From the NCBI GenBank assembly GCA_951406725.2, contig OX597830.1, forward strand, positions 72,974,001 to 73,038,000: a stretch of DNA of 64,000 nucleotides, written 5' to 3'. Positions within the stretch are counted from its first letter, which is position 1, and each line of letters starts with the position of its first letter. Source of the DNA: Octopus vulgaris. Lineage: Eukaryota. Positions 38,780-41,220 of the stretch are shown in pieces. Made by a program: the position numbers and the translations under genes. Below the pieces are notes generated by a model. It was not told where the DNA came from and did not search any database. It saw only the letters and a list, made by a program, of their open reading frames with translations.

Positions 38780-39001
38780 CAATCAATATAGGCTGGCAAA
38801 AAAATTTGTAGAATTCTTTTGCCACCAGCGGCCTAGTGGGAAAAAATTAAATAGTCATAAACCATTTTTAAGTTCAACATCACAATCAAGGAACGGCCAT
38901 AATAGGCCATTCACCCACTAGAAATAACAGCCAAAAGCTTTAACCGCAAAATAACATCAATTCCGTAAACCAGGAGAAAATTAAAAAACATTTACCCTGT
39001 A

Positions 39002-39108
39002 ATTTCTTAGACGATGCACCGTTTCATCTACTGTTTAATGGTAAACTAACCTGATTAAATTAAATCAAGCCAATCTACCATATGCCCTTAGATTCATCAG
39101 TAAGAAAT
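39002..39108 (-). ncRNA. Type I hammerhead ribozyme, canonical core, GUC site (copy 1)
   Basis: ATTTCTTA CTGATGA ATCTA-[long hairpin]-TAGAT GAAA CGGTGCATCG TC TAAGAAAT: 8-bp stem I, 5-bp stem II plus a 19-bp extension rich in G.U pairs, near-palindromic stem III. Confidence 0.88.
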
Positions 39109-39133
39109 AGCCAAGAAGTGATTTTATGAGTAT

Positions 39134-39229
39134 ACTTTTCCTGATGAATGGGACTATACCCGCATGGTTTGTGAGATTTCTATTAATTTTTCTACCAGGA
39201 CATGAACTCTGGAAACGGCCGTAGAATGT
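39134..39229 (+). ncRNA. Degenerate opposite-polarity hammerhead-like motif
   Basis: TTC CTGATGA ...64 nt... GAAA CGGCCG TA GAA; perfect ACGGCCGT stem III palindrome, weak stems I and II. Confidence 0.55.
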
Positions 39230-39575
39230 GGATTTCGTCGAATTGTGTTATATACCTTATATACCATTTATATTAAAAACAAAATACATATGAAATTCTA
39301 TGGATCTTTTAATTTAAACTCTTAACTGCTCTTAAATTTAGTACGAAAAAGTTTTTTATCTGTTCTCTTTTCGCAAATTTTTTTCCACATATATCCCACA
39401 TGGGTTTTATTTAAATGTATCTTTCTGTATAGTTATAAACCATTTTTAAGTTCAACATCACAATCAAGGAATATAATAGGCCATTCACCCACTAGAAATA
39501 ACAGCCAAAAGCTTTAACCGCAAAATAACATCAATTCCGTAAACCAGGAGAAAATTAAAAAACATTTACCCTGTA

Positions 39576-39682
39576 ATTTCTTAGACGATGCACCGTTTCA
39601 TCTACTGTTTAATAGAAAACTAACCTGATTAAATTAAATCAAGCCAATCTACCATAGGCCCTTAGATTCATCAGTAAGAAAT
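39576..39682 (-). ncRNA. Type I hammerhead ribozyme, canonical core, GUC site (copy 2)
   Basis: Same core and stems as copy 1; differences are confined to the stem II extension and internal loop. Confidence 0.87.
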
Positions 39683-41220
39683 AGCCAAGTCGGAACAGAT
39701 ATTTTTCACGAGGCATTCCTGTTGCTACCTCGGCAATATCTAACCTAAAATTTTCAAATCGTCGCACTCGCGCCAAATTTATCGGCAGCAAATAAATATA
39801 AGCCGCCGATTCCATTACGGAATGCTAACCAGAAAATTCATAATTAATCAATATAGGTGCCACACTAAATTGGCAAATAATCGTTACTGTATATATGTGT
39901 CTGCGTGTGTGTGTGTGTATGTGTGTGTATATATATATATATATATATACGTATGTATATGTATATATGTACATATATATATAAATAAATTTACATGTAT
40001 ATATATATATATACATATTTATGCGTGTGTGTTAGTGTCTGGGTGTGCGTCTGTGTGTCTGTGTATGTAAATGTGTATATACACACAGATATATACGCAC
40101 AGGTCCATGTGTGTGTCTTATGCCAAGCATATTCAAATTAACAAATTCACAATAAGAAATGTTGATGGTAACTTTATTTCGTATTGCATAGTTTATCCAA
40201 TGCCACAACATTTGAAAGCACAACCGTACTAAATAATGTATACCGATCCACCCCCGCACACACCATGTCATATCTGATCATATCACAGCGTGAATATGCA
40301 TGGGTATCGTGTAAAACAGAAATATGACGTTTGGCTGGAACTCTGGAGAGAAACCAATCTTGTTTGTTATTTTGAGTCCCTTGCGTTTTCCTGTATAAAC
40401 TGTTTACATTTTGTTCATATTTTATTCCATTTTTTTTCGGTTTGCCATAATATTTATAGCGAATATTTTCCACTTCTCAGTCTCAAGCTTTCTTCCTTTT
40501 CTTTTTTGTTTTGTCTTAGTCCTTAGTCTTTTTTTTTTTCATATTCCTTTGTCTCGTTATTGTTGTTGTTGTTGTTATTCTAGTTGTCGTTATGGGTCAA
40601 CAAAAGAAAAATTGTTTGAGGCGGATGAGAAAATTGAAATGAATATCTGGGCAAAATTGGTTTCTCTTCGATAACATCAAAAGAAATCGAGATTGTGTCA
40701 GTGGGGCGCCCTGAATCCTTCTATCTGATCAAAACGAGAAACGTTTGAAGACGTAAAAGCAACCGAAGCTGAAGTAAGACGTCTAAACACATATTCCTAT
40801 GACTACAAACTGTGTCAATTCTTCGGAAGAAGACGTTAGATTATGAATAAGATATATAGAAAGTAGAGAAGATTGGTCTATTACGTTACCGTTTTACTGT
40901 GCTTTGTATGCTTCTAATATATTCTGTAATGTCTGCGTTATGTTCCATTGTGGTTGTGAGGTCACAGTCTTTTGTAGTCTATGTTTTCTATACGGTTGTT
41001 GCTTATGTAGTCGTTGTTGTTGCTTAATATCCAGTTATTGATCGAACAGACGTATGAATAAAGGCTTCCCGCCTCGACCATCTCGCTTATTTCCTTGGCA
41101 ACCTACGCCGATAATCTAGAAGAGTGATCAGAAGGAAATTGGTTGCTATTTCTAGTGGGTCAGATGAATACGTGACTCATTGGTTCGCTCGAACAAGTTC
41201 TTATTTTGTTCTGTATTTAT

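Follow-up and report, generated by a model that had tools for sequence, protein, structure and literature searches.

The locus analysed here is a composite in which two copies of family A, a short non-coding hammerhead element, lie on either side of an antisense piece of a second family, B. We read family A as a non-LTR retrozyme that a Penelope-like enzyme, with reverse transcriptase and endonuclease, probably mobilises in trans, and give this reading of locus and family together a probability of about 0.8. The insertions of family A number in the hundreds and are very young; their ends are defined to the base and strictly follow a one-of-each rule, their arms come from a single template, and truncations cluster after the ribozyme cut. 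The family bears on how animal retrozymes re-enter the genome, on the role of the hammerhead in the Penelope cycle and on the origin of inverted insertions, which are described as open in the available text of PMC8557442, bioRxiv 2026.07.22.740005 and PMC11167929.

Repeats and hammerheads at the window locus

In the window, the 64,000-nt stretch of Octopus vulgaris DNA that was analysed, a direct repeat of 217 nt (38899-39115 and 39473-39689, 99% identity) occurs at a spacing of 574, together with a second repeat block of 43 nt (38851-38893 and 39429-39471, 98% identity). Aligned as wholes, the two repeats are 96.6% identical across 265 columns with a single 4-nt indel. A script scan for hammerheads over both strands of the 64-kb window gave three matches, two of which, on the minus strand, have every stem paired. 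Hammerhead 1 (39576-39682, minus strand) is composed of stem I at 39682-39675 / 39583-39576, the core at 39674-39668, stem II at 39667-39600, GAA at 39599-39597, stem III at 39596-39585 and C17 at 39584; hammerhead 2 (39002-39108, minus strand) has its core at 39100-39094, stem III at 39022-39011 and C17 at 39010. In both, CUGAUGA (starting at 39674 and 39100) is combined with an 8-bp stem I, a stem II region of 68 nt and a 12-nt stem III that is self-complementary with G.U pairs, and the predicted cuts lie 574 nt apart. The initial annotation had described two direct repeats, minus-strand type I hammerheads, their cut positions and the 574-nt spacing, and the repeat alignment and the scan agree with it on each point; it had also held that differences between the ribozyme copies avoid the core and stems I and III, and the three differences found are all in the stem II extension. 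The third match of the scan (3395-3504, plus strand, scan position 3405) is weak, lies in a SINE-like stretch, pairs 2/3 in stem II and is probably due to chance. Elsewhere in the window, at 36078-36504 and 41875-42040, there are three diverged copies of a short interspersed repeat, which we take to be a SINE.

The minus-strand pair has the features of type I hammerheads: a CUGANGA / GAAA / UH core, stems I-III and an opening at stem I. Counting against the assignment, stem II of family A opens with A-U, where the usual pair is G-C. Folding is significant on the minus strand only (z of -3.3 and -5.4, and of -0.9 and -1.4 on the plus strand), and the minimum-energy folds form stems I and II with the stem III hairpin absent. 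A search of 30000-50000 against Rfam returned no hammerhead match at E<=1 and microsatellite noise only, probably because the 58-nt stem II insert defeats the models; a match to an Rfam model is a detection test and not the definition of a hammerhead.

Family A is numbered from the first base after the predicted cut (+1), with a real unit (L010:1608-2098) as reference. Copy 1 in the window (39429-39857, minus strand) comprises unit positions 220-491 followed by 1-159, is without both normal 3' ends and carries a 4-nt deletion near +113. Copy 2 (38775-39115, minus strand) comprises positions 386-491 followed by 1-237; its distal (+237) end is fused to (TA)n and its 5' end meets the start of B via a 4-nt microhomology. 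Both copies had been found in the earlier reading, but their extension to 39857 and 38775 had been missed. Between the two fixed 3' ends of the element lies a 106-nt "tail" (38775-38879, minus strand; +131 at 38879 and +237 at 38775), which contains a 15-bp hairpin, and beyond it the (TA)n-rich target microsatellite (38602-38774). At the 5' junction of copy 1, a short inverted hairpin-like filler (39858-39873) resembles a junction at another locus, L114.

Family A across the genome

A search of the genome (2.8 Gb, 227 contigs) with the 261-nt repeat gave 2257 candidates, and the 40 that were scored show 97% identity and in many cases a spacing of 490-492 bp. Among 33 cut-to-cut monomers from 13 other loci, 31 measure 489-493 nt and two measure 500 and 504 nt, with a mean identity of 98.7%. 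The unit is thus 491 nt long, with a GC content of 36%, and arrays reach up to 11 units. A long open frame is absent from family A, as is a frame encoding reverse transcriptase (RT) plus GIY-YIG, which rules out an autonomous Penelope-like element. The proposal of a non-autonomous ribozyme retroelement made in the initial annotation is borne out by this non-coding family, tandem at many other loci, and the check suggested there on the number of genomic copies and their tandem arrangement is answered by the same counts. Judged by sequence, family A has every testable feature that defines non-LTR retrozymes: two or more units follow one another in tandem, a full type I hammerhead lies in each of them, and the unit is short and non-coding with a GC content below 50%. 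Its 491 nt fall inside the 51-972 bp range of units given for such elements in the available text of bioRxiv 2026.07.22.740005.

The arrays are near-uniform, with a divergence of 0.4% within a locus vs 2.8% between loci. Single variants are nevertheless common to non-adjacent units in 3 of 12 long arrays (L116, L134 and L121), which a single monomer circle does not predict; shared columns in a fourth array (L161) look like a misalignment at a T-run. A search for a sister family, A', gave 1359 candidates; its unit of 490 nt is colinear with that of A, and its insertions stop at the same pair of ends. A' (L246-L275) and an 8-unit A-like array with compensatory stems (L121:1-3664) indicate several waves of one lineage. 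TA-targeting families of different kinds nest in the same microsatellite tracts at L014, L115, L121, L135, L202 and L243, as they do at the window locus. Further unrelated type I hammerhead candidates were seen at L054, L058, L059 and L062, that at L059 being an inverted pair in which stem II measures 59 nt and stem III is a palindrome of 8 nt, and the genome likely holds several more hammerhead families of this kind.

Contigs of guessed RNA type from three studies (X1, X3 and X6) cover the A parts of 38760-39890 in 18, 20 and 22 of 30 bins and leave the B spacer with almost no cover; for want of a silent-repeat control, these figures are neutral on transcription. Pile-ups of starts and ends are invisible in contigs.

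The spacer and the 574-nt composite

The spacer (39116-39428, plus strand) is a 313-nt fragment of the older family B, antisense to A, with about 80% identity to other B copies, and spans from near the fixed 5' start of B to about its TA-rich internal end. It has no match in the 29 other family A loci compared. A genome search with it recovered B as a separate family of 151 candidates; among the 40 scored, the best other copy is 86% identical, and the window spacer is at least 14% diverged from every one of them. Members of B have a fixed start, TA-bound ends, in some cases inverted arms, and a type I hammerhead of their own (on the window plus strand) with GUA and, as stem III, an 8-nt palindrome, which could be parsed in 17 of 20 aligned rows, many of them decayed. 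In the window this hammerhead (39133-39231, plus strand; core 39141-39147, GAAA 39212-39215, stem III 39215-39222, A17 39223, cut 39223/39224) is degenerate, with a U.U mismatch in stem I, and keeps the 8-nt palindrome of stem III; the earlier reading had overlooked this hammerhead. Family B as a whole (window 39116-39428; L032-L050) is an older hammerhead element of about 520 nt whose fixed 5' start lies about 30 nt before the core; its stem II extension is long like that of A, yet without sequence likeness, and tandem copies of B were not seen.

In the initial annotation, the 574-nt interval between the cuts was taken as the monomer of the element. This part of the claim did not survive the comparison with the 491-nt units elsewhere: the spacer is foreign, the 30-mer at the B/A junction has a single match in the genome (2.8 Gb, <=2 mismatches), and no other copies of the 574-nt composite were found in the genome. 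Folded as circles against 25 shuffles each, the 574-mer does no better than its shuffles (z -1.2), and the 491-mer and its antisense reach z of -4.5 and -4.7. The 574-nt piece also lacks position +237, and the hairpin that precedes +131 is damaged in it by a deletion. The ribozymes on either side of the piece are intact and could set it free, and a read-through transcript of the window would be predicted to yield it. The claim of this specific RNA is an ordinary one, the accident of a nested insertion. That the cut-to-cut piece is itself a mobile circular RNA is, on the unique junction, the divergence of the spacer and the fold, highly improbable, and as a family the 574-nt reading is largely refuted.

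The two A copies in the window differ by 1.7%, a value intermediate between the within- and between-locus means that fits either one or two insertion events. A resident B copy is favoured because B is older, and the locus likely arose by insertion of A on both sides of it, with deletions. Among insertions of A it is exceptional, with its copies on the same strand and the +131 end absent. This single locus may be an assembly artefact; for family A as a whole, that reading is ruled out by hundreds of loci and several subfamilies.

Conservation of the ribozyme fold

A motif parse over the fetched loci, with a pattern that fixes the core except N7 and position 17, gave 45 distinct variants, in which N7 is U, G, C or A and position 17 is C or A; its counts are not independent, because some loci overlap. 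Stem changes include A-U to G-C in stem II in one subfamily and likewise in the L121 array, there in stem I too. Stem III occurs in three types, ACGGUGCAUCGU, ACGGUAUA(C/U)CGU and, in the sister family A', ACAAUGCAUUGU, each of them self-complementary, and single-locus breaks of self-complementarity are also present. A change of the stem III loop from GC to AU keeps pairing in the dimer only. In an RNAalifold consensus of 13 rows, both-sided changes affect 7 of the 56 predicted pairs, among them 3 pairs of stem I and 1 pair of stem III, and represent few events because the rows are kin. The stem III hairpin is marginal, at -0.2 kcal/mol, and the duplex is strong, at -17.5, in line with the dimer model as set out in the available text of PMC4209133. 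Stem covariation, which the initial annotation had proposed as a check, is present, the palindromic stem III suits dimeric cleavage as stated there, and sequence variation across the copies supports the hammerhead fold.

Insertions in (TA)n have two fixed ends

Exact junctions to TA number 407 at +131 and 670 at +237, and controls with reversed patterns number 0. The first sample, picked at +131, consisted of 80 regions covering 81 of the 100 +131 ends listed (C1-C3), with 3 in loci already examined, 2 on C3 and 14 on C4 left out. An opposite-strand arm was present in 69 of the 80 regions; it ended at 226-243 in 66 of the 69 (63 of these followed by TA), elsewhere in 3, and near 131 in none. 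A k-mer parse suggests short second arms at a few of the 11 "single" loci. The second sample started from the 49 exact +237 ends on C1, 10 of which pair with listed +131 ends; at the remaining 39, an opposite arm was present in 31, ending at 120-140 in 25, elsewhere in 6, and at 225-245 in none of the 31. Use of the same end twice was found in 0 of 100 parsed twin-arm insertions, and under independent end choice the absence of same-end pairs among the 69 has a probability of about 5e-15 (assuming 38%).

Opposite arms also share their haplotype. In a comparison of 211 copies of at least 200 nt from 70 loci, 85% of 149 opposite-arm pairs agreed at every one of 19 diagnostic sites, vs 9% of 21811 between-locus pairs. 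Insertions are flanked by (TA)n on both sides, which bears on the criterion of a TSD of more than 4 bp. The inverted ends could suggest a DNA transposon or a MITE; this reading was rejected, since the two ends correspond to distinct positions inside a single unit and the point of inversion is variable.

Inverted and tandem anatomy, a tail between two fixed ends and a microsatellite target are features of Penelope-like derivatives; in the available text of PMC8557442 the tandem, inverted and tail anatomy is that of Penelope-like elements, and that of PMC11167929 shows that the tail is the stretch separating two sites at which RT starts. To judge from its insertions, family A works like a non-autonomous Penelope-like element, with no parent found.

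Templates for insertion

The 5' ends of the arms cluster just after the predicted cut. With one arm counted per locus, 27 of 119 fall in +1..+30, about threefold the 9.0 expected (p 1e-6), in a test window that was chosen after the first sample was seen; the excess is present in each sample (17 vs 6.6 among +131-picked loci and 10 vs 2.5 among +237-picked loci). The 30 nt before the cut hold 6 ends, and no other of 17 windows is enriched. The ends in the pile-up are spread from +1 to +28, with 2 of the 27 at +1/+2. The +1..+30 window is the most AT-rich (80%); across windows, however, AT content was no predictor of truncation (rho 0.17, p 0.51). Microhomology bias or stalling of the RT at the ribozyme fold could contribute to the pile-up, which as a sign of self-cleavage is indirect.

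Most arms nonetheless cross the cut site (52/80 and 34/66), which calls for circles, uncut multimers or jumps as well. We consider ligation of cut A RNAs into circles to have slightly better than even odds. The competing scheme differs solely in this step: the templates are linear RNAs, read through from master arrays and cut in part by the ribozymes, and long arrays come from multimers or from post-insertion expansion. It explains the cut-crossing arms equally well, accommodates the variants shared by non-adjacent units in three arrays, and agrees with several multi-unit arms that begin just 3' of a cut site; in the available text of PMC11167929, moreover, the anole element in vitro used mainly uncut RNA as template, its insertion needed no cleavage and no RNA reads ended at the cut. 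Set against it are the near-uniformity of the arrays, the stable folding of the 491-nt unit as a circle (shared by its antisense strand) and the circles that do form for coral, mussel and axolotl retrozymes as described in PMC7229834, so far as that text was available. We regard templates of the linear kind as a serious possibility, somewhat short of an even chance.

The twin arms could also stem from one cDNA, primed at +237, that snaps back and copies itself to +131, in place of two primings on RNA. Such a fold-back would account for the shared haplotypes and the one-of-each rule. Junctions between the arms are symmetric in 23 of 66 twins (4.2 expected), and fold-back lengths occur in 21 of 66; symmetric junctions are also expected if both cDNAs run off one RNA end. 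Fold-back cannot account for the length of the +131 arm in 27 of 66 twins, where this arm is too long, and single-arm +131 insertions exist. As the sole route, fold-back is impossible, and as a replacement for two primings it is improbable; a subset of insertions may have been made in this way.

Candidate driver enzymes

Next to one A array lies an RT fragment, and by way of it a young family was recognised that has many identical copies and an open frame of 718 aa. Its motifs are those listed for the Hydra clade, to which we assign it by comparison with the available text of PMC8557442: RWR for RWK, DKT, CxCX5C, CxxC and CxH. The frame has no Pfam match, and a search with its C-terminal 146 aa returned its own family only. 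The element bears a different hammerhead. Its two ends, both fused to TA, are separated by about 70 nt, and 2 of 2 twin insertions use one end of each kind. This Hydra-type element (L076-L105, L106-L113) is very young and about 5.2 kb long, with a microsatellite-filled 3' region of about 3 kb, where described elements are <3 kb. In 28 of 33 matches a C-run is one base shorter, splitting the RT frame from the endonuclease; the subfamily may be defective, the run may signal a frameshift, or the homopolymer may be in error. A Pfam GIY-YIG search brought up Neptune-type elements. These contain frames of 781 aa, terminate in (TA)n and have no terminal sequence in common with A, A' or B. These elements (L276-L283) include many intact 781-aa frames, have internal tandem repeats in the 3' region, and carry near the TA-fused end a hammerhead-like motif with a non-canonical core.

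An autonomous partner with homologous ends was found in neither the Hydra-type nor the Neptune-type elements, and neither carries the hammerhead of A. A 28-nt antisense match at E 0.097, the only similarity to the candidate partners, was treated as chance. On age, target and end pattern, the intact Hydra-clade element is the leading candidate for the driver, with roughly even odds of being the one.

Alternatively, A might be no more than a pLTR, the terminal repeat of some autonomous Penelope-like element, and the copies of A would be 5'-truncated products of that element. The anatomy is that of Penelope-like elements in PMC8557442, as far as its text was available, and the autonomous families examined were two only. 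One A' copy, L261, has its 5' end joined on the same strand, with no TA tract between, to an old RT fragment of the Neptune-like kind, at its YxDD region, possibly by template switch; the other RT fragments inspected are set apart by TA tracts or unrelated DNA. Long arms, however, wrap round the 491-nt unit and do not run into an open frame, and tblastn of both proteins on all A, A' and B loci gave scattered fragments only. A pLTR origin is very unlikely, and we keep to mobilisation in trans.

Proposed cycle

In the cycle that we propose, tandem A arrays would be transcribed, and two ribozymes would pair via stem III, which is palindromic, with cleavage on the 3' side of GUC or GUA, the fold being indicated by conservation and the cleavage presumed. 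The cut RNAs would stay linear or become ligated circles. An enzyme would then nick both (TA)n strands and prime two cDNAs on the same RNA, at +131 and +237; the pattern of ends is observed, and the enzymology is modelled on the anole element. These cDNAs would run off the cut 5' end or go round the unit, and join head-to-head by microhomology to give the twin-arm insertion, an anatomy seen directly in the insertions.

A more specific and doubtful version is that a retrozyme without a sequence parent among active elements hijacks the Hydra-clade enzyme through RNA structure alone, with one dimer priming both target strands on one ribozyme-cut or circular RNA, always at one of each of two sites 106 nt apart. 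If this were true, hundreds of insertions would form a genomic record of hammerhead cleavage defining templates in vivo, and rolling-circle reverse transcription would build the arrays. Intact candidate enzymes in the same genome directly set up a trans-mobilisation assay.

Comparison with known systems

At first sight the window resembles plant LTR retrozymes, in which two ribozyme-bearing direct repeats surround a spacer; these (PMC4918200) have type III hammerheads, LTRs, PBS/PPT and 4-bp TSDs in the accounts of PMC7229834 and bioRxiv 2026.07.22.740005. The type I hammerheads, a spacer that is an unrelated element and the unique junction and arrangement of the window rule out this kind.

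Penelope-like elements, especially those of the Hydra clade, resemble A in several respects: their tandems are partial, one copy is inverted and truncated at its 5' end, the "tail" is as a rule confined to one end, insertion is into (TA)n, and the repeat contains a hammerhead. Family A differs from them in being without an ORF, in a tail of 106 nt vs 30-40 nt and in a repeat that is the whole element (both comparisons with PMC8557442, as far as available). In the Poseidon element PAc of the green anole, RT likewise starts at two internal sites, which delimit the tail; both strands of AT-rich DNA are nicked and extended, a dimer is predicted, and a hairpin lies at or next to the start sites. 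Unlike A, PAc is autonomous, shows no strand bias of start sites, and has cleavage without a role in vitro, as given in the available text of PMC11167929; A, in turn, uses one site of each kind per twin insertion and has truncations clustered after the cut.

The titles and opening abstract lines of the papers found on octopus hammerheads contain no such family, and no cephalopod retrozyme came up in the literature searched. The word "ribozyme" has 0 occurrences in the available text of a 2026 octopus repeat annotation (PMC13282606); its supplementary library, Repbase or Dfam may hold family A unnamed.

Among the nearest counterparts are the non-LTR retrozymes of metazoans, as described in the available parts of PMC7229834 and bioRxiv 10.64898/2026.07.22.740005. 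Like A, they are non-coding low-GC tandem units with a type I hammerhead in each, occur as dimers to multimers, have a palindromic stem III and share their genome with Penelope-like elements. Their units are about 170-400 nt in the invertebrate retrozymes tested, vs 491 nt in A, and A has a 58-nt stem II extension. The RNAs of metazoan retrozymes were shown to cleave and circularise; A is known from sequence alone. In Xenopus, in vitro cleavage failed for 8 of 9 dimers (bioRxiv 2026.07.22.740005). In the available text of that source, 24 of 57 Xenopus families have a pLTR parent, and none was found for A. Family A is also dispersed as twin-arm insertions whose two ends are fixed and whose target is (TA)n, a feature for which the accessible descriptions of metazoan retrozymes contain no counterpart. 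Family A joins a known kind of retrozyme, and its mechanistic footprints are unusually clear.
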